This document shows positions 24,827 to 51,969 of a stretch of 64,000 bases of DNA, piece by piece. The stretch's first letter is position 1, and every line of letters begins with the position of its first letter. Position numbers and translations under genes: made by a program. This stretch comes from Escherichia coli (GTDB taxonomy: Bacteria > Pseudomonadota > Gammaproteobacteria > Enterobacterales > Enterobacteriaceae). Below the pieces are notes generated by a model. That model was not told the DNA's origin. It did no database searches and worked only from the letters and a program-made list of their open reading frames with translations. The DNA lies in assembly GCF_013122565.1 (NCBI RefSeq), contig NZ_CP053258.1, one strand, 5' to 3'.

Positions 24827-27454
24827 ATGAGCGACCTTGCGAGAGAAATTACACCGGTCAACATTGAGGAAGAGCTGAAGAGCTCCTATCTGGATTATGC
24901 GATGTCGGTCATTGTTGGCCGTGCGCTGCCAGATGTCCGAGATGGCCTGAAGCCGGTACACCGTCGCGTACTTTACGCCATGAACGTACTAGGCAATGAC
25001 TGGAACAAAGCCTATAAAAAATCTGCCCGTGTCGTTGGTGACGTAATCGGTAAATACCATCCCCATGGTGACTCGGCGGTTTATGACACGATCGTCCGTA
25101 TGGCGCAGCCATTCTCGCTGCGTTACATGCTGGTAGACGGTCAGGGTAACTTCGGTTCCATCGACGGCGACTCTGCGGCGGCAATGCGTTATACGGAAAT
25201 CCGTCTGGCGAAAATTGCCCATGAACTGATGGCCGATCTCGAAAAAGAGACGGTCGATTTCGTTGATAACTATGACGGCACGGAAAAAATTCCCGACGTC
25301 ATGCCAACCAAAATTCCTAACCTGCTGGTGAACGGTTCTTCCGGTATCGCCGTAGGTATGGCAACCAACATCCCGCCGCACAACCTGACGGAAGTCATCA
25401 ACGGTTGTCTGGCGTATATCGATGATGAAGACATCAGCATTGAAGGGCTGATGGAACACATCCCGGGGCCGGACTTCCCGACGGCGGCAATCATTAACGG
25501 TCGTCGCGGTATTGAAGAAGCTTACCGTACCGGTCGCGGCAAGGTATATATCCGCGCCCGTGCTGAAGTGGAAGTTGACGCCAAAACCGGACGTGAAACC
25601 ATTATCGTCCACGAAATTCCGTATCAGGTAAACAAAGCGCGCCTGATCGAGAAGATTGCGGAACTGGTAAAAGAAAAACGCGTGGAAGGCATCAGCGCGC
25701 TGCGTGACGAGTCTGACAAAGACGGTATGCGCATCGTGATTGAAGTGAAACGCGATGCGGTCGGTGAAGTTGTGCTCAACAACCTCTACTCCCAGACCCA
25801 GTTGCAGGTTTCTTTCGGTATCAACATGGTGGCATTGCACCATGGTCAGCCAAAGATCATGAACCTGAAAGACATCATCGCGGCGTTTGTTCGTCACCGC
25901 CGTGAAGTGGTGACCCGTCGTACTATTTTCGAACTGCGTAAAGCTCGCGATCGTGCTCATATCCTTGAAGCATTAGCCGTGGCGCTGGCGAACATCGACC
26001 CGATCATCGAACTGATCCGTCATGCGCCGACGCCTGCAGAAGCGAAAACTGCGCTGGTTGCTAATCCGTGGCAGCTGGGTAACGTTGCCGCCATGCTCGA
26101 ACGTGCGGGCGACGATGCTGCGCGTCCGGAATGGCTGGAGCCAGAGTTCGGCGTGCGTGACGGTCTGTACTACCTGACCGAACAGCAAGCCCAGGCAATT
26201 CTGGATCTGCGTTTGCAGAAACTGACCGGCCTTGAGCACGAAAAACTGCTCGACGAATACAAAGAGCTGCTGGATCAGATCGCGGAACTGTTGCGTATTC
26301 TTGGTAGCGCCGATCGTCTGATGGAAGTGATCCGCGAAGAGCTGGAGCTGGTTCGTGAACAGTTCGGTGACAAACGTCGTACTGAAATCACCGCCAACAG
26401 CGCAGACATCAACCTGGAAGATCTGATCACCCAGGAAGATGTGGTCGTGACGCTCTCTCACCAGGGCTACGTTAAATATCAGCCGCTTTCTGAATACGAA
26501 GCGCAGCGTCGTGGCGGGAAAGGTAAATCTGCCGCACGTATTAAAGAAGAAGACTTTATCGACCGACTGCTGGTGGCGAACACGCACGATCATATCCTGT
26601 GCTTCTCCAGCCGTGGTCGCGTCTATTCGATGAAAGTTTATCAGTTGCCAGAAGCCACTCGTGGTGCGCGCGGTCGTCCGATCGTCAACCTGCTGCCGCT
26701 GGAGCAGGACGAACGTATCACCGCGATCTTGCCGGTGACCGAGTTTGAAGAAGGCGTGAAAGTCTTCATGGCGACCGCTAACGGTACCGTGAAGAAAACT
26801 GTCCTCACCGAATTCAACCGTCTGCGTACCGCCGGTAAAGTGGCGATCAAACTGGTTGAAGGCGATGAGTTGATCGGCGTTGACCTGACCAGTGGCGAAG
26901 ATGAAGTAATGCTGTTCTCCGCCGAAGGTAAAGTGGTGCGCTTTAAAGAGTCTTCTGTCCGTGCGATGGGCTGCAATACCACTGGTGTGCGCGGTATTCG
27001 CTTAGGCGAAGGCGATAAAGTCGTCTCTCTGATCGTGCCTCGTGGCGATGGCGCAATCCTCACCGCAACGCAAAACGGTTATGGTAAGCGTACCGCAGTG
27101 GCGGAATACCCAACCAAGTCGCGTGCGACGAAAGGGGTTATCTCCATCAAGGTTACCGAACGTAACGGTTTAGTGGTTGGCGCGGTGCAGGTAGATGACT
27201 GCGACCAGATCATGATGATCACCGATGCCGGTACGCTGGTACGTACTCGCGTTTCGGAAATCAGCATCGTGGGCCGTAACACCCAGGGCGTGATCCTCAT
27301 CCGTACTGCGGAAGATGAAAACGTAGTGGGTCTGCAACGTGTTGCTGAACCGGTTGACGAGGAAGATCTGGATACCATCGACGGCAGTGCCGCGGAAGGG
27401 GACGATGAAATCGCTCCGGAAGTGGACGTTGACGACGAGCCAGAAGAAGAATAA
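24827..27454 (+). CDS. gyrA: DNA gyrase subunit A
   Basis: 875 aa; [15 protein letters not shown]; acidic C-terminal tail. Confidence 0.97.
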
Positions 27455-27474
27455 TTTTACTTCTTCATGCCAAA

Positions 27475-27496
27475 AGGGAGCTATCTCCCTTGTTTG
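27475..27496 (+). terminator. Candidate gyrA terminator hairpin
   Basis: agggag-ctat-ctccct followed by tgtttg; a second imperfect hairpin with T-run at about 27510-27535. Confidence 0.4.
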
Positions 27497-27602
27497 AATT
27501 GAAAAGTCCAGGCTGCAAAGTCTGGGCTTTTGTCGTATTAGGGCGCGGTAAAGTTTGGCTGTGCCCGTAAAAAATGGCTGGCTATACACAAGGAATGTGG
27601 CA

Positions 27603-34449
<6,847 letters not shown>

Positions 34450-36099
34450 GTGAACTGGCGCAGAATCGTCTGGCTATTGGCGTTGGTTACTCAGCCAACG
34501 CTTGCGGAGGAGACGCCGTTACAACTGGCGCTGCGGGGCGCGCAGCACGATCAACTGTATCGGCTGTCGTCATCAGGCGTGACCAAAGTCTCGGCATTAC
34601 CTGACACGCTCACCACGCCGTTAGGGAGTTTGTGGAAACTGTATGTTTACGCCTGGCTGGAGGATACCCATCAACCGGAGCAGCCCTACCAGTGTCGCGG
34701 AAACTCCCCGGAAGAGGTTTATTGTTGTCAGGCTGGGGAGAGCATAACGCGCGATACCGCGCTGGTACGTTCCTGTGGGCTCTATTTTGCGCCGCAGCGG
34801 TTGCATATTGGCGCAGATGTGTGGGGGCAATACTGGCAACAGCGTCAGGCACCTGCGTGGTTAGCGTCTCTTACTACGCTGAAGCCAGAAACCTCGGTAA
34901 CGGTTAAATCGCTGCTTGATTCATTAGCGACGTTACCTGCGCAAAACAAAGCTCAGGAAGTCTTACTGGATGTGGTGCTGGACGAGGCGAAAATCGGTGT
35001 CGCATCCATGCTCGGTAGTCGGGTACGGGTGAAAACCTGGAGCTGGTTTGCCGATGATAAACAGGAAATCCGTCAGGGTGGTTTTGCTGGCTGGTTAACC
35101 GATGGTACACCGCTGTGGGTTACTGGCAGTGGCACCAGCAAAACGGTACTAACCCGTTATGCGACGGTGCTTAATCGGGTTTTGCCAGTGCCGACGCAGG
35201 TTGCCAGTGGGCAATGTGTAGAGGTGGAGCTGTTTGCCCGCTATCCGCTGAAGAAAATCACAGCGGAAAAGAGTACGACGGCAGTAAAACCCGGCGTACT
35301 TAATGGGCGCTATCGTGTGACATTTGCCAATGGTAACCACATTACGTTTGTCAGCCACGGTGAGACGACCTTACTGAGCGAAAAGGGCAAACTGAAATTG
35401 CAGTCGCATCTCGATCGTGAAGAGTATGTTGCCAGAGTTCTGGATCGCGAGGCGAAAAGTACGCCACCTGAGGCAGCGAAAGCCATGACCGTGGCGATAC
35501 GCACTTTTTTACAGCAAAACGCCAATCGGGAAGGCGATTGCCTGACCATCCCTGACAGCAGCGCCACGCAGCGTGTTTCGGCTTCGCCAGCGACCACGGG
35601 GGCGCGAACGATGACCGCCTGGACGCAGGATCTCATCTATGCGGGCGATCCGGTTCATTATCACGGCAGTCGCGCTAGCGAAGGGACGCTTTCCTGGCGG
35701 CAAGCCACGGCCCAGGCGGGGCAGGGAGAGCGTTACGACCAGATACTCGCGTTTGCTTATCCCGACAACAGCCTTAGCCGCTGGGGAGCGCCACGCTCAA
35801 CCTGCCAGTTATTACCCAAAGCGAAAGCCTGGCTGGCGAAAAAAATGCCGCAGTGGCGGCGTATATTACAAGGCGAGACAGGGTACAACGAACCAGACGT
35901 GTTTGCGGTCTGTCGTTTAGTCTCAGGTTTCCCCTATACCGATCGGCAGCAGAAACGGCTGTTTATTCGTAACTTCTTTACGCTTCAGGATCGGCTGGAT
36001 TTAACCCATGAGTATCTGCACCTGGCCTTTGATGGTTATCCCACCGGGCTTGATGAGAACTATATCGAAACGCTGACCCGACAATTATTAATGGACTAA
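34450..36099 (+). CDS. yfaQ: DUF2300-family exported protein
   Basis: 549 aa; GTG start immediately after yfaS TAA stop; signal peptide. Confidence 0.75.
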   Translation: MNWRRIVWLLALVTQPTLAEETPLQLALRGAQHDQLYRLSSSGVTKVSALPDTLTTPLGSLWKLYVYAWLEDTHQPEQPYQCRGNSPEEVYCCQAGESITRDTALVRSCGLYFAPQRLHIGADVWGQYWQQRQAPAWLASLTTLKPETSVTVKSLLDSLATLPAQNKAQEVLLDVVLDEAKIGVASMLGSRVRVKTWSWFADDKQEIRQGGFAGWLTDGTPLWVTGSGTSKTVLTRYATVLNRVLPVPTQVASGQCVEVELFARYPLKKITAEKSTTAVKPGVLNGRYRVTFANGNHITFVSHGETTLLSEKGKLKLQSHLDREEYVARVLDREAKSTPPEAAKAMTVAIRTFLQQNANREGDCLTIPDSSATQRVSASPATTGARTMTAWTQDLIYAGDPVHYHGSRASEGTLSWRQATAQAGQGERYDQILAFAYPDNSLSRWGAPRSTCQLLPKAKAWLAKKMPQWRRILQGETGYNEPDVFAVCRLVSGFPYTDRQQKRLFIRNFFTLQDRLDLTHEYLHLAFDGYPTGLDENYIETLTRQLLMD

Positions 36100-36103
36100 T
36101 GCT

Positions 36104-36880
36104 ATGCGAAAGATTTTTCTTCCGTTGTTACTGGTGGCGCTTTCGCCTGTCGCTCACAGTGAAGGTGTGCAGGAAGTCGAGATTGATGCACCGCTCTCTG
36201 GCTGGCATCCGGCAGAGGGCGAAGATGCCAGTTTTTCACAATCGATCAATTACCCGGCGTCGTCCGTCAACATGGCAGATGATCAAAATATCTCAGCGCA
36301 GATCCGCGGCAAAATAAAAAATTATGCTGCGGCGGGTAAGGTTCAGCAGGGCCGGCTGGTGATCAACGGTGCCAGTATGCCGCAGAGAATTGAATCCGAT
36401 GGTTCATTTGCACGCCCTTATATTTTCACTGAAGGCAGCAACAGCGTGCAGGTCATCAGCCCGGATGGGCAAAGCCGACAAAAAATGCAGTTTTACTCAA
36501 CGCCGGGTACAGGAACGATTCGTGCACGTTTACGGCTGGTTCTCTCGTGGGATACGGACAATACCGATCTCGATCTCCATGTTGTCACGCCCGATGGCGA
36601 ACACGCCTGGTACGGTAACACCGTGCTGAAAAACAGTGGTGCACTGGATATGGATGTCACGACGGGGTACGGACCCGAGATTTTCGCCATGCCAGCACCA
36701 GTTCACGGGCGCTATCAGGTGTATATCAACTACTATGGTGGGCGCAGCGAAACGGAATTAACCACCGCCCAACTGACGCTGATCACCGATGAAGGATCGG
36801 TCAATGAGAAACAGGAAACATTTATTGTACCGATGCGTAATGCTGGCGAGCTGACGCTGGTGAAAAGTTTTGACTGGTGA
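36104..36880 (+). CDS. yfaP: DUF2135-family exported protein
   Basis: 258 aa; ATG 4 nt after yfaQ stop; signal peptide. Confidence 0.8.
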   Translation: MRKIFLPLLLVALSPVAHSEGVQEVEIDAPLSGWHPAEGEDASFSQSINYPASSVNMADDQNISAQIRGKIKNYAAAGKVQQGRLVINGASMPQRIESDGSFARPYIFTEGSNSVQVISPDGQSRQKMQFYSTPGTGTIRARLRLVLSWDTDNTDLDLHVVTPDGEHAWYGNTVLKNSGALDMDVTTGYGPEIFAMPAPVHGRYQVYINYYGGRSETELTTAQLTLITDEGSVNEKQETFIVPMRNAGELTLVKSFDW

Positions 36881-36934
36881 TCCATCCCTTCACACAACCT
36901 GGCGCTCTCTTTTTTCAGATAAGACTGCTGGGCG

Positions 36935-36978
36935 ATCTGCCGACGCCAGGATATAACCATTAACAAGCGTCGGCAGAT
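36935..36978. other. Perfect 12-bp inverted repeat with 20-nt loop at the yfaP-rcsC junction
   Basis: atctgccgacgc ... gcgtcggcagat. Confidence 0.6.
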
Positions 36979-37151
36979 TGGTCATTTCTTATTCGTACTG
37001 AGAACTGTCCATTTACTCTGGCTTTCCTGGTTAAGGCAATGGTTTCCAAGCGATACGCATTATTGCAATGGTGACAGAACATTGCGGTAACACGCTTTTA
37101 CCGCTACCTTAACCACACTCCATCGGTCACCTGAGGCGGAGCTTCGCCCCT

Positions 37152-40001
37152 TTGAAATACCTTGCTTCTTTTCGTACAACCCTGAAAGCCTCGCGCTACA
37201 TGTTCAGAGCATTGGCGTTAGTGCTCTGGCTGTTGATTGCTTTTTCATCCGTTTTTTACATCGTTAATGCGTTACATCAGCGAGAATCGGAAATTCGTCA
37301 GGAATTTAATCTGAGTTCCGATCAGGCTCAGCGCTTTATTCAACGCACCTCTGATGTGATGAAAGAGCTGAAGTACATCGCTGAAAATCGCTTATCGGTA
37401 GAAAACGGTGTGCTTTCCCCGCGTGGACGAGAAACGCAGGCAGATGTGCCTGCGTTTGAACCGCTGTTTGCCGACTCCGATTGTTCCGCAATGAGTAACA
37501 CCTGGCGAGGTTCTCTGGAGTCATTGGCGTGGTTTATGCGCTACTGGCGCGATAATTTTTCTGCGGCTTACGATCTCAACCGGGTATTTTTAATCGGCAG
37601 CGATAACCTCTGCATGGCCAATTTCGGTCTGCGTGATATGCCAGTGGAACGCGATACCGCGTTGAAAGCTTTGCATGAACGCATCAATAAATATCGAAAT
37701 GCACCACAAGATGATAGCGGCAGTAACCTCTACTGGATCAGCGAAGGTCCGCGCCCTGGCGTCGGGTATTTTTACGCGTTGACGCCAGTTTATCTGGCGA
37801 ACCGGTTGCAGGCGCTTTTGGGTGTCGAGCAAACCATCCGGATGGAGAACTTTTTCTTACCGGGTACGTTGCCGATGGGGGTTACCATTCTTGATGAAAA
37901 TGGTCATACCCTGATTTCGCTTACCGGACCAGAAAGCAAAATTAAGGGCGATCCTCGCTGGATGCAGGAACGCTCCTGGTTTGGCTATACGGAAGGGTTC
38001 CGGGAGCTGGTGCTGAAGAAAAATCTGCCACCCTCATCGCTAAGCATCGTGTATTCGGTGCCGGTTGATAAGGTGCTGGAACGCATTCGCATGTTGATCC
38101 TTAACGCAATTTTGCTGAATGTGCTTGCCGGAGCTGCATTGTTTACTCTCGCGCGGATGTACGAGCGACGTATTTTCATTCCGGCGGAAAGCGACGCCCT
38201 GCGACTGGAAGAACATGAGCAGTTCAATCGCAAGATTGTCGCCTCCGCGCCAGTGGGTATCTGCATTTTGCGTACCGCTGATGGCGTCAATATTTTAAGT
38301 AACGAACTGGCGCATACCTATCTCAATATGCTTACGCATGAGGACCGCCAACGACTGACGCAAATTATCTGTGGGCAGCAGGTCAATTTTGTTGATGTCC
38401 TGACCAGCAACAATACCAATCTGCAAATCAGCTTCGTCCATTCGCGCTATCGTAATGAAAACGTGGCCATTTGTGTGCTGGTGGATGTTTCTTCGCGCGT
38501 GAAGATGGAAGAGTCGTTGCAGGAGATGGCACAAGCAGCGGAACAGGCGAGCCAGTCAAAATCGATGTTCCTTGCCACCGTCAGTCATGAGCTGCGAACG
38601 CCGCTGTATGGCATTATCGGTAACCTGGATCTTTTGCAAACCAAAGAGTTACCGAAAGGCGTCGATCGTCTGGTGACGGCAATGAACAACTCTTCCAGCC
38701 TGTTGTTGAAAATTATCAGCGATATTCTCGATTTCTCGAAGATTGAATCGGAACAGTTGAAGATCGAACCGCGTGAGTTTTCACCGCGTGAAGTGATGAA
38801 CCACATCACCGCCAACTATTTACCGCTGGTGGTACGCAAGCAGTTAGGCTTGTACTGCTTTATTGAACCGGATGTGCCAGTGGCCTTAAATGGCGACCCG
38901 ATGCGTTTACAGCAGGTCATCTCCAACCTGTTGAGTAACGCCATAAAATTCACCGATACCGGCTGTATAGTTTTGCATGTCCGCGCTGATGGCGATTATC
39001 TCTCTATCCGTGTTCGCGATACCGGCGTGGGGATCCCGGCGAAAGAAGTGGTGCGCTTGTTTGATCCCTTCTTCCAGGTCGGAACGGGCGTACAGCGAAA
39101 CTTCCAGGGGACCGGTCTGGGTCTGGCGATTTGTGAAAAACTGATCAGCATGATGGACGGCGACATCTCGGTAGATTCAGAACCGGGAATGGGCAGCCAG
39201 TTTACCGTGCGTATTCCGTTGTACGGCGCTCAGTACCCGCAGAAAAAAGGCGTGGAAGGGTTGAGTGGTAAACGCTGCTGGCTGGCGGTCCGCAATGCGT
39301 CACTCTGTCAGTTCCTGGAAACCAGTTTGCAGCGCAGCGGCATCGTCGTAACAACATACGAAGGGCAGGAACCGACTCCCGAAGATGTGTTAATCACTGA
39401 CGAGGTAGTGAGTAAAAAATGGCAGGGCAGAGCGGTAGTGACCTTCTGTCGTCGACATATTGGTATTCCGCTGGAGAAAGCGCCAGGGGAGTGGGTACAC
39501 AGTGTGGCTGCTCCGCATGAGCTACCGGCATTGTTGGCGCGTATTTATTTGATCGAGATGGAGAGCGACGATCCTGCTAACGCTCTGCCGTCGACGGACA
39601 AAGCGGTCAGCGATAATGACGATATGATGTTTCTGGTCGTGGATGATCATCCGATTAACCGACGTCTGCTGGCAGATCAGTTGGGATCGTTGGGCTATCA
39701 ATGTAAAACCGCGAATGATGGCGTCGATGCGCTTAATGTACTTAGCAAGAATCATATTGATATCGTGCTTAGCGACGTCAACATGCCAAATATGGATGGT
39801 TACCGCTTGACGCAACGCATTCGTCAGTTGGGACTGACGTTGCCGGTAATCGGAGTAACTGCTAATGCGTTGGCTGAAGAGAAGCAGCGGTGTCTGGAGT
39901 CCGGTATGGACAGCTGCCTGTCGAAGCCGGTAACGCTGGATGTGATAAAACAGACGCTGACGGTATATGCCGAGAGGGTCAGGAAATCGCGGGAATCGTA
40001 G
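37152..40001 (+). CDS. rcsC: Rcs phosphorelay hybrid sensor histidine kinase
   Basis: 949 aa; HisKA H-box (SHELRTPL), HATPase and C-terminal receiver domain; apparent TTG start. Confidence 0.92.
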   Translation: MKYLASFRTTLKASRYMFRALALVLWLLIAFSSVFYIVNALHQRESEIRQEFNLSSDQAQRFIQRTSDVMKELKYIAENRLSVENGVLSPRGRETQADVPAFEPLFADSDCSAMSNTWRGSLESLAWFMRYWRDNFSAAYDLNRVFLIGSDNLCMANFGLRDMPVERDTALKALHERINKYRNAPQDDSGSNLYWISEGPRPGVGYFYALTPVYLANRLQALLGVEQTIRMENFFLPGTLPMGVTILDENGHTLISLTGPESKIKGDPRWMQERSWFGYTEGFRELVLKKNLPPSSLSIVYSVPVDKVLERIRMLILNAILLNVLAGAALFTLARMYERRIFIPAESDALRLEEHEQFNRKIVASAPVGICILRTADGVNILSNELAHTYLNMLTHEDRQRLTQIICGQQVNFVDVLTSNNTNLQISFVHSRYRNENVAICVLVDVSSRVKMEESLQEMAQAAEQASQSKSMFLATVSHELRTPLYGIIGNLDLLQTKELPKGVDRLVTAMNNSSSLLLKIISDILDFSKIESEQLKIEPREFSPREVMNHITANYLPLVVRKQLGLYCFIEPDVPVALNGDPMRLQQVISNLLSNAIKFTDTGCIVLHVRADGDYLSIRVRDTGVGIPAKEVVRLFDPFFQVGTGVQRNFQGTGLGLAICEKLISMMDGDISVDSEPGMGSQFTVRIPLYGAQYPQKKGVEGLSGKRCWLAVRNASLCQFLETSLQRSGIVVTTYEGQEPTPEDVLITDEVVSKKWQGRAVVTFCRRHIGIPLEKAPGEWVHSVAAPHELPALLARIYLIEMESDDPANALPSTDKAVSDNDDMMFLVVDDHPINRRLLADQLGSLGYQCKTANDGVDALNVLSKNHIDIVLSDVNMPNMDGYRLTQRIRQLGLTLPVIGVTANALAEEKQRCLESGMDSCLSKPVTLDVIKQTLTVYAERVRKSRES

Positions 40002-40200
40002 GACGGATAAGGTGTTTATGCCGCATCTGGCATTCAGTGCAAATGCCAGATGCGACGCTGACGCGTCTTATCTGGCCTACTTTAATGTAATCTGTTGAAA
40101 TAATGGGAATCGTAGGACGGATAAGGCGTTTACGCCGCATCCGGCAATCGGTGCAAATGCCAGATAAGACACTAACTAGTCTTATCTGGCCTACATCTGG
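39991..40200. repeat. Tandem duplication (period 114 bp) of a REP-containing unit
   Basis: gggaatcgtaggacggataagg occurs at 39991 and 40105, each followed by REP palindromes; the first copy includes the last 11 nt of rcsC. Confidence 0.7.
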
Positions 40201-40211
40201 CCTACAGATGA

Positions 40212-40862
40212 TTAGTCTTTATCTGCCGGACTTAAGGTCACAGAAGAGAGATAATTCAGCAGGGCGATATCGTTCTCGACACCCAGCTTCATCATCGCAG
40301 ATTTCTTCTGGCTACTGATGGTTTTAATACTGCGGTTCAGCTTTTTAGCGATCTCGGTCACCAGGAAGCCTTCCGCAAACAGGCGCAGAACTTCACTCTC
40401 TTTTGGCGAGAGACGCTTGTCACCGTAACCACCAGCACTGATTTTTTCCAACAGGCGAGAAACGCTTTCCGGGGTAAATTTCTTCCCTTTCTGCAGCGCG
40501 GCGAGAGCTTTCGGCAGATCGGTCGGTGCACCTTGTTTCAGCACGATCCCTTCAATATCCAGATCCAATACCGCACTAAGAATCGCCGGGTTGTTGTTCA
40601 TAGTCAGAACAATGATCGACAGGCTTGGGAAATGGCGCTTGATGTACTTGATTAAGGTAATACCATCGCCGTACTTATCGCCAGGCATGGAGAGATCGGT
40701 AATCAACACATGCGCATCCAGTTTCGGCAGGTTGTTGATCAGTGCTGTAGAGTCTTCAAATTCGCCGACAACATTCACCCACTCAATTTGCTCAAGTGAT
40801 TTGCGAATACCGAACAAGACTATCGGATGGTCATCGGCAATAATTACGTTCATATTGTTCAT
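40212..40862 (-). CDS. rcsB: Rcs response regulator (LuxR/FixJ family)
   Basis: 216 aa from ATG 40862 (MNNMNVIIADDHPIV); receiver domain plus C-terminal HTH. Confidence 0.95.
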   Translation of the reverse strand: MNNMNVIIADDHPIVLFGIRKSLEQIEWVNVVGEFEDSTALINNLPKLDAHVLITDLSMPGDKYGDGITLIKYIKRHFPSLSIIVLTMNNNPAILSAVLDLDIEGIVLKQGAPTDLPKALAALQKGKKFTPESVSRLLEKISAGGYGDKRLSPKESEVLRLFAEGFLVTEIAKKLNRSIKTISSQKKSAMMKLGVENDIALLNYLSSVTLSPADKD

Positions 40863-40878
40863 GTAATAGGCTACCTTG

Positions 40879-43551
40879 CTACAGCAAGCTCTTGACATAA
40901 CTGTCAATGTCGCTGATGTATTTTTCTATTCCTGGAACATCCTTCTCACGAATCAGATGTTCCAGCGTTTCACATAACTGCTTGCCGGGTACCAGATTTA
41001 GCATGGCAAATACGCCTTTAAGACGATGAGCCGTTTGGGCTAACGCAGCAAAGTCACTGGTTGCTGCTTCAGTATACAGCCTCTTAACATCATCCGGTAC
41101 TGTGTCTACAAAGAGCGCATAATAGCCGCTGGCATGGAGTTGCGCATTTTCATCTCCGCCCAGAGGCGATTCTGTCACCTCTTCCTGCGCCAGTTGCACT
41201 TCAATTAATTGTAAGACCGCTTCCTGCATAGCGTTGCTCATATTGAAGTTGACGCACAATTGACCAGGCCCAATTTCCCGTACGCCAGACTCATCATCGC
41301 TTAAAAGCAAGCCAGAGGCAGTAAGATTAGACGGATTATCCGTTAAAAAGATATCATAATCTTGACTAATTAATCTTTCATCGGGTGTGATACAGGTTGC
41401 ACCCCAATTTTCTAACTGGCGAGTGACAATATTCCGAATTTCTGCCGAAGTAACATCCACCATTACGCAGACATCATCCAGTAAACGCTCTTCTTCCTCT
41501 TCAACTTCCGGGTCAGCTGCGAGCATTTTGATATGCACAGAGTAGCGTGTACCAAGCCCATCCCGCGTTTTGATGTTTAAATGACCGCCCAGTTTACGCG
41601 CCAGTTGATCGCTCAGCCAGAATGCCAGCGGGTCCGCCTTGCCATAGCGATCGTTTTGGGTCTGGTTGATAAACGGGAAGTGCAAATTATCCATTTCATG
41701 AATACTTACGCCTTCTCCCGTGTCCAGAATGCGGAACGTCAGGCGGTCTTCGGAGGACTCATCCTGATCAACCTCAAGGGTGATTTTTCCCAATTGCGTT
41801 GAGGTCACGGCATATTGCATCAGTAGCAGCAAAATACGTCGTAAGGCATCGCGATCGCCGCGGCGCATATCGTGTGCTTTCAGATGATTGTTAATCAGCA
41901 GTTGCAGACCTTTACGCTTGATGGCAGGCAACACTGAAGGCACAACTTCATCAATTAAATCCTGCACGGAGAACAGCACCGTCTCACTTTTCCAGCTATC
42001 GTCCGCAAGCATGTTCGCTAACTGTATTTCATCGACCAGCCGCACCAGCACATCTGCCTGATTCGCCAGTTGTTTGCTTTCCGGGGCGTTGAGTTTAGCC
42101 GCGCTCTCCGCCAGGGACTGTGCGGGTTCTTTCAGCGCATCGCCAATGTTTTTCATAAAGGTCATCCGCCCCTGCTGGTTTTTCTCATACAGACGCTGCG
42201 CCTGCTTGAGTTTCTTGTTTACCAGCACTTCGCGATCCTGATCGCGAATAATGAAAATTTGTGTGCGCGGCGCAACCTGGCTGCGGAACATGCGGATCTC
42301 ATACAGCTCGTTATTGATCGTCGCCTGAATAATCCCCTGATGCTGTTCCGCCATGGTGGTGATGTTTTGCAGATTCAAATGCGGCAGCAAATGATCGGCA
42401 ATTTTGTTACTTATGACAGTGCGGTTCGATTCCTGATCGTGAACCAGCAGGCCGAGCGGCAGCAGTGAGACTATCTCTTCATTAATTGCCCGTAAAATGC
42501 GCAATTCGTTATTGACCGCCGTGTTGGGTAGACTTTCTGTACTGCGACTGGAGAAATGGCGGAATGTGGTATAGCCAAATAACGCCAGCGCCAGCAAACC
42601 GATGTTCAGCAGCAGTGGCAGCAGAATGTTTTGCAACGTATCCAGCAATAAGGTGCCATAAGGAACCTGCCAGACCAGGCGCATATCGGTAGAGTTGAGT
42701 GCCGAGGAGATTTCAATCTTCGTACTGTTAAAGTGGATACTGACGCTATCCGTCCCTTCTTTCTCATTATCATTGTTTCCCGTTGCCGTCGCGTCTGGCT
42801 CAAGGCGGAAACTGTCCAGCGGCATACCCGGTGGGATCAAATCATTAATCGGCAGATCAAAAGCCACGACCGTTGCCAGATGTCCCGGCTGGTTGAACGT
42901 GGTACGCAAGGTAAAGTAATGACCGTTCTGCCAGGCCAGGCGGCGCATGTTAGAAAAACTTTCGCGTTCATCGAGGGCGTTGGCCTGTTGCAACATCTCT
43001 GCACGACGTGAATCAACAATGTCACTGACGGTCGATTCTTTAAATCCGGAGGTGAGATCTTTGAGGGGCAGGGTTGAGATCAGCACCAGACTGTTATCCT
43101 GACCATTCAGGTAATACATCGACCACGGTACATTTTCTGCGCCCCACAATGTATCCAGATAAGTGGACATCCGCTGAGTCATCTCAAGCGTTGAGTTGTC
43201 GTGAGAGCCAAAGATTAACGCTTCCGTTTTGCGACGCGGTTTTTCCAGATAGTAGACATCCTGTTTCAGGCGCGTCTCTTGTAAACCTTCGCCGGAGGAG
43301 GGGGAGGTCGTCGCGGCAATGTTGTCGTAGATCTGCCAGGTCACGTAACGCCAGGTATCGACGCGCTTTTGGATTGCGTGGGTAATGTCGACAATCTGGT
43401 AACTTTTATCTTTCAGCCAGGCGTTAACGGCGCTTTGTACCATTACACCCATCGTCACCAGTAACACAATGATCAACAGTAAAAAGAAGCGGGTAATGCT
43501 CCCCGGTAGGAGTGAAAAGCGGGTCGTGGCCGTTGTCTCTTTCTGACGCAT
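40879..43551 (-). CDS. rcsD: Rcs phosphotransfer protein (HPt)
   Basis: 890 aa; two N-terminal TM segments, degenerate kinase-like core, C-terminal HPt. Confidence 0.92.
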   Translation of the reverse strand: MRQKETTATTRFSLLPGSITRFFLLLIIVLLVTMGVMVQSAVNAWLKDKSYQIVDITHAIQKRVDTWRYVTWQIYDNIAATTSPSSGEGLQETRLKQDVYYLEKPRRKTEALIFGSHDNSTLEMTQRMSTYLDTLWGAENVPWSMYYLNGQDNSLVLISTLPLKDLTSGFKESTVSDIVDSRRAEMLQQANALDERESFSNMRRLAWQNGHYFTLRTTFNQPGHLATVVAFDLPINDLIPPGMPLDSFRLEPDATATGNNDNEKEGTDSVSIHFNSTKIEISSALNSTDMRLVWQVPYGTLLLDTLQNILLPLLLNIGLLALALFGYTTFRHFSSRSTESLPNTAVNNELRILRAINEEIVSLLPLGLLVHDQESNRTVISNKIADHLLPHLNLQNITTMAEQHQGIIQATINNELYEIRMFRSQVAPRTQIFIIRDQDREVLVNKKLKQAQRLYEKNQQGRMTFMKNIGDALKEPAQSLAESAAKLNAPESKQLANQADVLVRLVDEIQLANMLADDSWKSETVLFSVQDLIDEVVPSVLPAIKRKGLQLLINNHLKAHDMRRGDRDALRRILLLLMQYAVTSTQLGKITLEVDQDESSEDRLTFRILDTGEGVSIHEMDNLHFPFINQTQNDRYGKADPLAFWLSDQLARKLGGHLNIKTRDGLGTRYSVHIKMLAADPEVEEEEERLLDDVCVMVDVTSAEIRNIVTRQLENWGATCITPDERLISQDYDIFLTDNPSNLTASGLLLSDDESGVREIGPGQLCVNFNMSNAMQEAVLQLIEVQLAQEEVTESPLGGDENAQLHASGYYALFVDTVPDDVKRLYTEAATSDFAALAQTAHRLKGVFAMLNLVPGKQLCETLEHLIREKDVPGIEKYISDIDSYVKSLL

Positions 43552-43863
43552 TCGTGTTTATGACCTGTTAAAACTTCGCGAAGTGATAGGGCAGTATAAA
43601 GGGTACAGTGTGAAATTCCAGACTCTTACCTGATTGATGATTCTCTATTCTCCCGTGATATTTAACATCCTGTATGGGGGGAAATAGATGTACAAGCGCC
43701 ATTTTGCTGTACAAATAACCTACGAAAAGCCCAACGAAATAAATTGCAAATAAACGAAGATTGCTGGAAATTATGCTGATGTTAATTATTTGTGAAATAG
43801 TTAACAAGCGTTATAGTTTTTCTGTGGTAGCACAGAATAATGAAAAGTGTGTAAAGAAGGGTA

Positions 43864-43956
43864 AAAAAAAACCGGATGCGAGGCATCCGGTTGAAATAGG
43901 GGTAAACAGACATTCAGAAATGAATGACGGTAATAAATAAAGTTAATGATGATAGC
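43864..43956 (-). ncRNA. micF: MicF antisense sRNA
   Basis: Minus strand reads gctatcatcattaactttatttattaccgtcattcatttctgaatgtctgtttacccc...aaccggatgcctcgcatccggtttttttt, the MicF sequence with its terminator hairpin, divergent from ompC. Confidence 0.85.
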
Positions 43957-44111
43957 GGGAGTTATTCTAGTTGCGAGTGAAGGTTTTGTTTTGACATTCA
44001 GTGCTGTCAAATACTTAAGAATAAGTTATTGATTTTAACCTTGAATTATTATTGCTTGATGTTAGGTGCTTATTTCGCCATTCCACAATAATCTTAAAAA
44101 GTTCCCTTGAA

Positions 44112-44171
44112 TTTACATTTTGAAACATCTATAGCGATAAATGAAACATCTTAAAAGTTTTAGTATCATAT
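44112..44171 (+). promoter_or_regulatory. OmpR-binding region (C1-C3) of the ompC promoter
   Basis: tttacattttgaaacatcta / tagcgataaatgaaacatct / taaaagttttagtatcatat, matching the ompC upstream repeats as I recall. Confidence 0.65.
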
Positions 44172-44275
44172 TCGTGTTGGATTATTCTGCATTTTTGGGG
44201 AGAATGGACTTGCCGACTGATTAATGAGGGTTAATCAGTATGCAGTGGCATAAAAAAGCAAATAAAGGCATATAA

Positions 44276-45394
<1,119 letters not shown>

Positions 45395-45412
45395 TCTCGA
45401 TTGATATCGAAC

Positions 45413-45436
45413 AAAGGGCCTGCGGGCCCTTTTTTC
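45413..45436 (+). terminator. Rho-independent terminator of ompC
   Basis: aaagggcc-tgcg-ggcccttttttt. Confidence 0.8.
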
Positions 45437-45505
45437 ATTGTTTTCAGCGTACAAACACAGTTTTTTGGTGTACTCTTGCGACCGTTCGCATGAGGATAAT
45501 CACGT

Positions 45506-46561
45506 ATGGAAATAAGCTTTACCCGCGTGGCACTGCTGGCTGCCGCGCTCTTCTTTGTTGGTTGCGATCAAAAACCACAACCCGCCAAAACCCACGCTAC
45601 TGAAGTTACCGTTCTTGAAGGCAAAACTATGGGTACCTTCTGGCGTGCCAGCATCCCGGGCATTGACGCCAAACGCAGCGCCGAACTTAAAGAAAAGATT
45701 CAGACCCAGCTGGACGCCGACGATCAGCTGCTTTCGACCTATAAAAAAGATTCCGCGCTGATGCGCTTTAACGACTCGCAAAGTTTGTCGCCGTGGCCGG
45801 TAAGTGAAGCGATGGCCGATATCGTCACCACCTCGCTGCGCATTGGCGCAAGGACCGATGGTGCGATGGATATAACCGTCGGGCCGCTGGTGAATCTGTG
45901 GGGCTTTGGCCCGGAACAACAGCCGGTTCAAATTCCGAGCCAGGAACAGATCGATGCGATGAAAGCCAAAACTGGTTTACAGCACCTGACGGTCATTAAT
46001 CAGTCGCATCAGCAATATCTGCAAAAAGACCTACCGGATTTATATGTCGATCTCTCCACCGTCGGTGAAGGTTATGCGGCGGATCACCTGGCACGCTTGA
46101 TGGAGCAGGAAGGAATTTCACGTTATCTGGTGTCAGTTGGTGGTGCTCTGGATAGCCGTGGTATGAACGGTGAAGGCCAGCCGTGGCGGGTAGCGATTCA
46201 AAAACCAACCGATAAAGAAAACGCGGTTCAGGCTGTGGTGGATATCAACGGTCATGGGATTAGCACCTCTGGCAGCTACCGTAACTATTACGAACTGGAC
46301 GGCAAACGTCTTTCCCATGTTATCGATCCGCAAACCGGGCGTCCCATCGAACACAATCTGGTATCCGTGACGGTGATTGCTCCGACGGCGCTGGAAGCCG
46401 ATGCCTGGGATACTGGCTTGATGGTACTCGGGCCGGAGAAAGCCAAAGAGGTTGTTCGCCGGGAAGGGCTGGCGGTTTATATGATCACCAAAGAAGGTGA
46501 TAGCTTTAAAACCTGGATGTCACCACAGTTTAAAAGCTTCCTGGTCAGCGAAAAAAATTAA
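45506..46561 (+). CDS. apbE: FAD:protein FMN transferase (lipoprotein)
   Basis: 351 aa; lipobox FFVGC near N-terminus. Confidence 0.9.
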   Translation: MEISFTRVALLAAALFFVGCDQKPQPAKTHATEVTVLEGKTMGTFWRASIPGIDAKRSAELKEKIQTQLDADDQLLSTYKKDSALMRFNDSQSLSPWPVSEAMADIVTTSLRIGARTDGAMDITVGPLVNLWGFGPEQQPVQIPSQEQIDAMKAKTGLQHLTVINQSHQQYLQKDLPDLYVDLSTVGEGYAADHLARLMEQEGISRYLVSVGGALDSRGMNGEGQPWRVAIQKPTDKENAVQAVVDINGHGISTSGSYRNYYELDGKRLSHVIDPQTGRPIEHNLVSVTVIAPTALEADAWDTGLMVLGPEKAKEVVRREGLAVYMITKEGDSFKTWMSPQFKSFLVSEKN

Positions 46562-46568
46562 TGCGCAA
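46551..46568 (+). promoter_or_regulatory. Ada-box-like element of the ada promoter
   Basis: aaaaaaattaatgcgcaa (AAAT...GCAA) about 70 bp upstream of ada, overlapping the apbE stop. Confidence 0.5.
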
Positions 46569-46634
46569 GATTGTTGGTTTTTGCGTGATGGTGACCGGGC
46601 AGACTAAAGGCTATCCTTAACCAGGGAGCTGATT

Positions 46635-47699
46635 ATGAAAAACGCCACATGCTTAACTGACGATCAACGCTGGCAATCTGTCTTAGCCCGCGACCCGAAT
46701 GCCGACGGCGAATTCGTTTTCGCCGTGCGCACCACGGGTATCTTTTGCCGTCCGTCTTGCCGCGCCAGACATGCCTTGCGGGAAAACGTCTCCTTCTACG
46801 CAAATGCCAGCGAGGCACTCGCCGCTGGCTTTCGCCCCTGCAAACGTTGTCAGCCAGACAAAGCCAATCCCCGGCAACATCGCCTTGATAAAATTACCCA
46901 CGCCTGCCGACTTCTGGAACAGGAAACGCATGTAACGCTGGAAACCTTAGCCGACCAGGTGGCGATGAGCCCGTTCCATCTGCATCGGTTGTTTAAAGCG
47001 ACTACCGGAATGACGCCTAAAGCCTGGCAACAGGCCTGGCGCGCTCGCCGTTTGCGCGAATCGCTGGCGAAAGGGGAGAGCGTGACGACGTCTATTCTTA
47101 ACGCCGGATTCCCCGACATCAGCAGTTACTACCGCAAAGCTGACGAAACGCTGGGCATGACGGCTAAACAATTCCGTCACGGTGGCGAAAATCTGGCGGT
47201 GCGTTACGCGCTGGCTGATTGTGAGCTGGGTCGTTGCCTGGTGGCAGAAAGCGAGCGGGGGATTTGCGCGATATTGCTGGGCGATGATGACGCGACATTA
47301 ATCAGCGAGTTGCAGCAGATGTTTCCCGCTGCCGACAGCGCGCCTGCCGATCTGACGTTTCAGCAACATGTGCGTGACGTGATCGCCAGCCTCAATCAAC
47401 GCGATACGCCGCTGACGTTACCGCTGGACATTCGCGGCACTGCTTTTCAGCAACAAGTCTGGCAGGCACTGCGCACGATACCTTGCGGTGAAACCGTCAG
47501 TTATCAGCAACTGGCGAACGCCATCGGCAAACCGAAAGCGGTACGGGCCGTTGCCAGCGCCTGTGCCGCCAACAAGCTGGCTATCGTAATACCCTGTCAT
47601 CGAGTGGTCCGTGGTGATGGCACTCTTTCTGGTTACCGCTGGGGCGTGTCGCGTAAAGCACAACTGCTGCGCCGCGAAGCTGAAAATGAGGAGAGGTAA
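46635..47699 (+). CDS. ada: Bifunctional transcriptional activator / O6-methylguanine-DNA methyltransferase
   Basis: 354 aa; N-terminal Cys cluster (FCRPSCRAR), AraC-type HTH, C-terminal PCHRV active site. Confidence 0.95.
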   Translation: MKNATCLTDDQRWQSVLARDPNADGEFVFAVRTTGIFCRPSCRARHALRENVSFYANASEALAAGFRPCKRCQPDKANPRQHRLDKITHACRLLEQETHVTLETLADQVAMSPFHLHRLFKATTGMTPKAWQQAWRARRLRESLAKGESVTTSILNAGFPDISSYYRKADETLGMTAKQFRHGGENLAVRYALADCELGRCLVAESERGICAILLGDDDATLISELQQMFPAADSAPADLTFQQHVRDVIASLNQRDTPLTLPLDIRGTAFQQQVWQALRTIPCGETVSYQQLANAIGKPKAVRAVASACAANKLAIVIPCHRVVRGDGTLSGYRWGVSRKAQLLRREAENEER

Positions 47700-50273: not shown

Positions 50274-51932
<1,659 letters not shown>

Positions 51933-51938
51933 TGATGT

Positions 51939-51969
51939 GCCACATCCGGCATGGTATGCCGGATGTGGC
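51939..51969 (+). other. 14-bp perfect-stem hairpin immediately 3' of mqo
   Basis: gccacatccggcat-ggt-atgccggatgtggc. Confidence 0.6.

Follow-up and report, generated by a model that had tools for sequence, protein, structure and literature searches.

An old ato deletion scar between yfaP and rcsC of Escherichia coli, with a hairpin in its atoS relic that may serve as a replacement yfaP 3'-end structure

Alignment with K-12 and other Escherichia genomes shows that the 271-bp gap between yfaP and rcsC in the E. coli DNA analyzed here (64,000 nucleotides of contig NZ_CP053258.1, called the window below) is an old ato deletion scar. The best explanation of what the scar now contains, which we consider fairly probable, is that the hairpin formed by its atoS relic serves as a replacement 3'-end structure for yfaP. 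The comparisons show that an ato+ ancestor lost about 7.2 kb, beginning immediately after yfaP, including atoB-E-A-D-C and ending near codon 50 of atoS. The deletion also took the bidirectional yfaP/atoB terminator, leaving yfaP co-oriented with rcsC and directly upstream of it. What was left is 28 nt without homology to the K-12 ato region, an 81-nt antisense atoS relic, and a decayed atoS start and intergenic stretch merging at 37076 with the sequence upstream of rcsC. The perfect repeat arose by substitutions within the relic, possibly template-switch events perfecting a quasi-palindrome. In the course of events that we propose, the hairpin that it forms would then have taken over as the 3'-end structure of the yfa transcript, whether as a terminator, an insulator or an mRNA-stabilizing hairpin.

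The yfaP-rcsC junction and the atoS relic

The coordinates of all features discussed are collected in Table 1. The yfaP frame ends in a TGA codon at 36878-36880, and its last 180 nt are 100% identical to the DNA of K-12, a match that stops one base past the stop codon. The gap to rcsC comprises positions 36881-37151, and from 37076 onward it is again 100% identical to K-12. Between these two stretches of complete identity there are 194 bp in the window versus about 7.4 kb in K-12 (NC_000913.3), where the genes atoS-atoC-atoD-atoA-atoE-atoB occupy 7,251 bp (2320043-2327293) between rcsC and yfaP. A tblastn search with the six K-12 Ato proteins found no ato genes in the 64-kb window. The first-pass annotation had reported a 271-bp gap free of ato, and had placed atoSCDAEB (about 7 kb) between rcsC and yfaP on the K-12 map; the open reading frame coordinates and the tblastn search agree with the former, and the 7.25 kb annotated in NC_000913.3 with the latter. 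It was equally correct in calling the configuration non-K-12-type, as K-12 carries ato at this place and the window does not, and in pointing out a perfect inverted repeat at 36935-36978, with 12-bp arms and an N20 spacer.

Table 1. Features of the yfaP-rcsC junction in the window, with sequence divergence where it was counted
Feature	Coordinates	Strand	Basis or description	Differences from E. whittamii	Sites that vary in five E. coli scar alleles
yfaP CDS, 258 aa	36104..36880	+	ORF list; tblastn, 99.2% amino acid identity to K-12 YfaP		
Left scar flank, 28 nt	36881..36908		No homology to the K-12 ato region	12/28	3
atoS relic (conserved island), 81 nt	36909..36989	- (atoS sense)	Homologous to atoS nt ~61-147, codons ~21-49	3/81	0/81
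Extended hairpin	36929..36984	+ (yfaP/rcsC strand)	RNA fold: 14 contiguous and 3 outer pairs, 20-nt loop		
Left arm of the repeat, ATCTGCCGACGC	36935..36946	+	Read directly; repeat search		
Right arm of the repeat, GCGTCGGCAGAT	36967..36978	+	Read directly; repeat search		
U-rich tail	36985..36995	+	UUUCUUAUUCG in the window, UUUCUUAUUUUUCG in most E. coli		
Decayed atoS start and atoS-proximal half of the atoS-rcsC intergenic region	36990..37075	-	Multiple and global alignment		
Scar flanks, as compared	36881-36908 and 36990-37062			32/104	13/104
rcsC-proximal region, as compared	37063-37151			3/89	0/89
rcsC-proximal upstream region, presumed rcsC promoter and 5' UTR	37076..37151	+	Common to ato+ and ato- haplotypes		
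rcsC CDS, 949 aa, TTG start	37152..40001	+	ORF list; tblastn, 99.5% identity to K-12 RcsC		

The left scar flank stands in the place of the bidirectional yfaP/atoB terminator of K-12-type strains, and the left end of the deletion of about 7.2 kb falls within it. This flank is fast evolving, as seen from its counts in Table 1. The sequence that follows is of a different kind. The stretch 36906-36973 matches the antisense strand of atoS nt 79-145 in K-12 at 53 of 68 nt (78%), and a search of 28 Gb with the island matched the annotated atoS genes of 3,717 ato+ genomes (E = 4e-4; identity of 77.8% over 63 nt). The minus-strand translation of the relic, MTNLPTLVNGYILASADRPAVLSEK, aligns with MVIVPTLTIGYIVETEGRSAVLSEK of AtoS (residues ~23-47). 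The relic is colinear with K-12 through the atoS-rcsC intergenic region into rcsC, that is, it is syntenic, in the same orientation as atoS and divergent from rcsC. About 29 atoS codons are left in it. An alignment of K-12, E69, MOD1, the window and E. whittamii places a deletion of ~52 nt relative to K-12 next to the relic, which removes atoS codons ~3-20; the atoS start codon has been lost (ATG to ACG, at about 36994-36996), and a further 11 nt are missing from the intergenic part of 36990..37075. All three marks of an atoS pseudogene relic were thus found together, namely homology, synteny with conserved orientation, and loss of coding capacity.

The AtoS N termini of several genera all keep IGYIVETEGRSAVLSEKEKKL, where the relic has NGYILASADRPAVLSEKRE. 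Changes at residues that do not vary in AtoS mark the relic as a decayed gene and not a divergent working allele. No living atoS allele resembling the relic was found in the complete E. coli genomes, in which every good match was a scar, and the 41-aa ORF of strain M159-1, used as a query, matched only scar-encoded ORFs. We therefore rejected the idea that a divergent functional atoS allele had acted as donor.

Other features of the neighborhood can be mentioned here. In the window, yfaS, the gene for an alpha-2-macroglobulin, has an intact reading frame of 1,539 codons (29830-34449), unlike in K-12, where it is annotated as a pseudogene, and yfaQ of EDL933 is annotated as a pseudogene with an internal stop. 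Within the rcsC-proximal region, a 7-bp inverted repeat (GCGGTAA-N7-TTACCGC, 37084-37104) is common to all haplotypes and to E. whittamii. As this repeat overlaps the putative core promoter of rcsC, it is a possible operator.

Distribution and age of the ato losses

A query of 1,271 bp across the yfaP-rcsC junction was searched in 5,426 complete E. coli genomes, and the contiguous ato-less junction was present in 1,537 of them (~28%). The query splits into a yfaP piece and an rcsC piece in the other genomes, and the rcsC-side match of ato+ genomes begins at positions 37073-37076 of the window; the K-12-type atoS-rcsC arrangement was found in 3,870 genomes. Among the carriers of the ato-less junction are O157:H7 EDL933, O55:H7, SE11, O26:H11, O111, O104:H4 and O145, strains mainly of phylogroups E and B1. 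The source strain itself is poorly covered by this collection: the best identity of positions 27000-47000 to any of the 5,426 genomes is only 98.1%, and four changes at the junction (G at 36904, TTT lost after 36991, T at 37019 and C at 37047) are private to the window and occur in no complete genome. By these comparisons, its lineage is without a representative among the complete genomes.

The locus is the strain-variable ato (atoSC-atoDAEB) locus of E. coli, with the same presence/absence polymorphism. The B1 strain SE11 has been described as being without the acetoacetate metabolism genes of MG1655 (PMC2608844), and in LEE-negative STEC the atoSC-atoDAEB genes are carried on module I of the LAA pathogenicity island (PMC6174562, PMC10562709). 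The presence or absence of ato is an ordinary, common gene-loss polymorphism, already published as a gene-content difference. Text searches found no paper that describes how the junction is built, with its atoS relic, further small deletions and hairpin, or that E. whittamii has it as well; literature searches on atoS together with yfaP and on the rcsC promoter returned nothing, and those on yfaP together with rcsC returned nothing relevant. The junction anatomy appears to be undescribed so far, yet of a familiar kind.

Two genomes show other fates of the operon. The O91:H21 strain FWSEC0008 has an ato copy elsewhere on the chromosome that is 97.5% identical to K-12, while its native locus keeps the rcsC part only. 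The displaced copy adjoins an outer membrane protein gene and a phosphoethanolamine transferase gene and retains only 29 nt of K-12-type sequence upstream of atoS, and it is consistent with module I of the LAA island as described in the literature. In E. coli TUM1223, a strain-specific deletion fuses a truncated atoE to napG and removes atoDA, atoSC, rcsC, rcsB, rcsD, ompC and the genes up to napG; the loss of rcsC, rcsB and rcsD leaves this isolate without the whole Rcs phosphorelay core.

Scanning of species-representative genomes with YfaP gave four informative loci. In E. whittamii, yfaP and rcsC are separated by 276 bp that show the same three deletions as the window. At fourfold-degenerate sites of yfaQ, yfaP and rcsC, 28 to 41% of positions differ between the window and E. 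whittamii, and in the scar flanks 26 to 43% differ (20 of 76 in the stretch 36990-37062). As flank divergence is comparable to that of the fourfold sites, the scar is about as old as the split of the two species' copies. On sequence comparison, the E. whittamii junction is the same ancestral scar as that of the window.

A second loss was found in Escherichia sp. MOD1-EC7003, where atoS codons 1 to 90 are kept in antisense orientation with 91% amino acid identity to K-12, in the order yfaP, REP-like elements and a native-type terminator, antisense atoS relic, rcsC. This independent deletion means that ato has been lost at least twice in the genus. It kept the native terminator, unlike the deletion of the window. 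The E. albertii contig ends 64 bp past yfaP, and those 64 bp are the K-12-type yfaP/atoB terminator. Last, the divergent Escherichia E69 (CP089930.1) has ato intact. Its fourfold-site divergence from K-12 is 0.38 for rcsC versus 0.05 to 0.25 (about 0.11) for the ato genes; with ato so much closer to K-12 than rcsC is, the ato segment must have been exchanged horizontally between Escherichia lineages.

The inverted repeat and its hairpin

Only 10 of 20,000 shuffles of the 271-bp gap gave a perfect repeat like the present one (12 bp or longer, spacer of 3 to 40 nt; p about 5e-4), which is therefore more than a chance feature. The whole 64-kb window has four such loci, versus a mean of 0.13 in shuffled sequence, and the other three are also at gene 3' ends. 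Two of these are between rcsC and rcsB (40022-40054 and 40159-40190), and the third (51939-51969) closely follows an ORF that ends at 51932; with their loops of 3 to 9 nt, they resemble hairpins of the terminator or REP type. The 12-mer of the present repeat occurs within the window in its two arms only. A search with the conserved core found 1,545 places in 1,541 genomes, one place per genome.

The atoS relic contains both arms, which are on the same side of the large deletion, and from this it follows that ato was deleted here and was not inserted in K-12. When the first-pass proposal that the repeat flanks the ato insertion point was checked, it proved not to be so, since both arms are rcsC-proximal of the deletion. 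Its other suggestion, that the repeat is a remnant of the indel site, holds loosely, in that the repeat sits in the remnant of a deleted gene; the homologous atoS sequence of K-12 has no palindrome. This K-12 sequence folds with a dG of -12.1 kcal/mol (z = +0.33), and as it is not palindromic, the repeat was made by substitutions inside the relic. The right arm is close to the ancestral sequence, and the left arm shows clustered changes relative to the K-type (CCGTTTC to CCGACGC) that render it complementary to the right arm. An A-to-T change at 36978, derived in E. coli, extended the perfect repeat from 11 to 12 bp. Quasi-palindrome template switching is an established type of mutation from E. 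coli mutagenesis work, and the present case resembles it in that clustered substitutions in one arm give the perfect complement of the other. It differs in that the process would here be read from the end state, the 11-bp ancestral state implied by E. whittamii being the sole intermediate.

On the strand of yfaP and rcsC, the extended hairpin has a predicted dG of -29.7 kcal/mol (z = -5.45), and none of 200 shuffles folds as well. The same hairpin is seen when the whole 271-bp gap is folded. It begins 48 nt past the end of yfaP, and no other strong structure is predicted on this strand before rcsC. The first-pass annotation had suggested a yfaP terminator, which is plausible: the hairpin is strong and has U-rich sequence behind it on the strand of yfaP, whose native terminator has been lost, while the 20-nt loop and the weakened stem of E. 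whittamii count against it. Directly after the extended stem comes UUUCUUAUU (7 of 9 U), which reads UUUCUUAUUUUU in most E. coli and UUUCUCAUUGUG in E. whittamii; the tail of the window has a private 3-nt deletion, and measured from the perfect 12-bp arm the U tract begins 6 nt later.

The K-12 yfaP/atoB terminator that was deleted here has the canonical arrangement of A tract, stem and U tract. The hairpin of the relic resembles it, and intrinsic terminators in general, in its stable G+C-rich stem (14 to 17 pairs), in the U-rich tract directly after the extended stem, in its stability (-29.7 versus about -30 kcal/mol), and in following a same-strand stop codon at a distance of 48 nt. It differs in its loop of 20 nt versus the 3 to 8 nt that are typical, and in being built from a coding-sequence relic, and termination is here a prediction. 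It has no upstream A tract and so would not be bidirectional, unlike the K-12 terminator. A consensus terminator scan, which considers loops of 3 to 8 nt only, did not call the hairpin, and as the same scan also missed the textbook-like yfaP/atoB terminator of K-12, its silence weighs little. Compared with REP/BIME elements, the palindrome is similarly placed just downstream of a gene and could likewise stabilize the upstream mRNA; unlike them, it is single copy per genome, has no REP consensus, and was derived in place from atoS. A search of positions 36600-37400 against the Rfam 15 covariance models gave no match at E <= 10.

The comparison with E. whittamii is less favorable to the stem. 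Its hairpin is much weaker (dG = -20.4 kcal/mol, z = -1.3), and all three island differences between it and the window fall in the stem, none of them compensatory in register; two of the three are derived in E. whittamii and weaken its hairpin. Positions 36934 and 36978 were considered as a compensatory pair and rejected, because the alignment fold shows them to be out of register, both of them breaking a pair. Across the alignment, 0 of 18 pairs had changed on both sides and 4 were broken in single variants, a count that has low power with only four distinct sequences. A metagenome copy has an uncompensated G-to-C change in the left arm, and in strain EC02 the sequence has changed immediately before the stem.

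From the fold, its position and the loss of the native terminator, we hold with moderate confidence that the hairpin acts as a replacement 3'-end hairpin or terminator for yfaP. Several observations stand against the terminator reading, among them the weak E. whittamii stem and the strains, described below, that survive with a disrupted island. Intrinsic terminators typically have loops much shorter than 20 nt; neither the loop nor the 26 nt 5' of the stem varies, which a plain terminator does not need; and the uncompensated left-arm and EC02 variants do not point to stem-preserving selection.

Conservation of the relic and possible functions

The relic island is conserved to a degree that its flanks are not. 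Its divergence from E. whittamii is about eightfold below that of the immediate scar flanks (Table 1), a difference that is significant both between species (Fisher p = 1e-6) and among the E. coli alleles (p = 6e-4). Compared with the fourfold-degenerate sites of the adjacent genes, the island gives a binomial p below 1e-7. A 62-nt core is identical in 1,478 of 1,541 genomes, and the adjacent 62-nt flank in only 404. No change is seen in the hairpin loop (20 nt) or in the 26 nt that precede the stem. A metagenome scan with a 19-mer of the loop gave seven matches, of which two are real scar copies, both E. coli-like, and revealed no new lineage. The alignments indicate that the relic decayed freely at first, to about 25% from the K-type, and then became constrained, which is the pattern expected if a use was acquired.

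Some strains do without an intact island. An IS3-family element lies in the hairpin loop of E. coli SRY206 (equivalent to ~36953), and in strain BS-04 part of the island is apparently deleted. In E. coli ATCC 43896, a prophage end lies inside the right arm (equivalent to ~36972; end sequence …GCGGCGCATCA). This prophage has baseplate and tail fiber genes and an invertase, and by its end sequence and its tail fiber/invertase gene order the end is probably Mu-like, reflecting random transposition. As the IS3 element, the Mu-like prophage end and the partial deletion are tolerated in a few strains, the island is not essential. The repeat was also considered as an attachment or target site and rejected: insertions occur in 2 of 1,541 genomes, with no hotspot.

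A broader reading, which we put forward tentatively, is that a dead-gene fragment (atoS codons ~21-49) would have been reused as a functional noncoding element, under purifying selection since before the split of E. coli and E. whittamii. The element could separate yfaP from rcsC as a 3'-end hairpin or insulator, or it could act on rcsC as a cis element or an RNA. The ato polymorphism would have outlasted the separation of species, and ato+ haplotypes would have been transferred by recombination and with the LAA island.

It is also possible, if rather doubtful, that the island is kept for a sequence-specific reason unrelated to the hairpin, the palindrome being incidental. It might, for example, be a cis-regulatory element of rcsC, or an unannotated RNA that already overlapped the atoS 5' end before the deletion. 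Such a reason would fit the finding that the three E. coli/E. whittamii differences all hit the stem while the loop and the 26 nt before it are unchanged. A 20-mer, TTTTTCAGATAAGACTGCTG, and a 10-mer, GATATAACCA, are also identical in the relic and in K-12 atoS despite ~25% divergence elsewhere. The ato+ alleles point the same way, as their atoS nt 1-180 are nearly invariant, synonymous sites included, with 0 to 5 differences per 180 nt versus 7 to 20 in the next 220 nt; E69 has 0 differences in these 180 nt although the sequence on either side has diverged (8 of 87 in the adjoining intergenic region), and both independent ato deletions stopped short of this stretch of atoS. Such invariance suggests that the nucleotide sequence itself is constrained upstream of rcsC, by something antisense to the atoS 5' end or overlapping it. 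On the other side, about one position in four differs between the relic and the K-12 type, more than would be expected of a shared element, and the insertions and the partial deletion are tolerated in a few strains. A consensus scan found no sigma-70-like promoter in the island (TATAAC at 36952-36957 has, by eye, no usable -35 partner), and there is no Rfam family and no identified binding-site consensus.

We consider it unlikely that the repeat is functionless, that is, a mutational by-product (for instance of quasi-palindrome template switching) in a neutrally decaying relic whose conservation would reflect recent shared ancestry or local rate variation. The repeat does sit in a dead gene fragment, its clustered left-arm substitutions are the pattern left by template switching, no compensatory change is seen in the stem, and the island is disrupted in several viable strains. 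Neutral decay is hard to reconcile with 3 differences in the 81 nt of the island versus 32 in the 104 nt of the flanks, with invariance among E. coli alleles whose flanks vary, or with the contrast to the fourfold-degenerate sites, and the island is as conserved as the rcsC promoter-proximal region (3/89).

A small protein encoded by the island is very improbable. The candidate is a minus-strand ORF of 31 aa (MTNLPTLVNGYILASADRPAVLSEKRERQVV, 36890-36985) that is open in E. coli; four protein clusters contain related ORFs of 33 to 63 aa, and a few genomes list the ORF as hypothetical in their annotation. We rejected it because codon 15 is TAG in E. whittamii and all three interspecies changes are nonsynonymous or nonsense; a stop codon also breaks its upstream extension, both in the window and in alleles of the EDL933 type. 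Finally, the view that ato is an insertion in K-12-type strains, with the repeat marking or flanking the empty site, has in its favor the coincidence of a palindrome near an indel and retains virtually no credibility, being already refuted, on the alignments, by the atoS relic: both arms are within atoS-homologous sequence, the ato-less allele bears further atoS-inactivating lesions, the outgroup E. albertii has the K-12-type terminator beside yfaP, and neither end of the K-12 ato cluster has flanking repeats, direct repeats or mobile-element ends as bounds.

For the biology of E. coli, the absence of ato is mostly of little consequence, as it is a common and reported lineage difference, with the operon absent here in O157:H7 and many B1 strains and present in K-12. 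What the junction adds is, first, that the history of ato here is one of loss and not of gain and, second, a scar so old that E. whittamii carries it too, which makes the scar a stable marker of haplotype ancestry. The deletion has set the yfa (alpha-2-macroglobulin) operon head to tail with rcsC, the sensor kinase of the Rcs envelope stress system, and the sole conserved structure between the two is the hairpin built from the atoS relic. If this hairpin does set the transcription that reaches rcsC, Rcs signaling could, speculatively, be wired slightly differently in ato-less lineages, including EHEC O157:H7.
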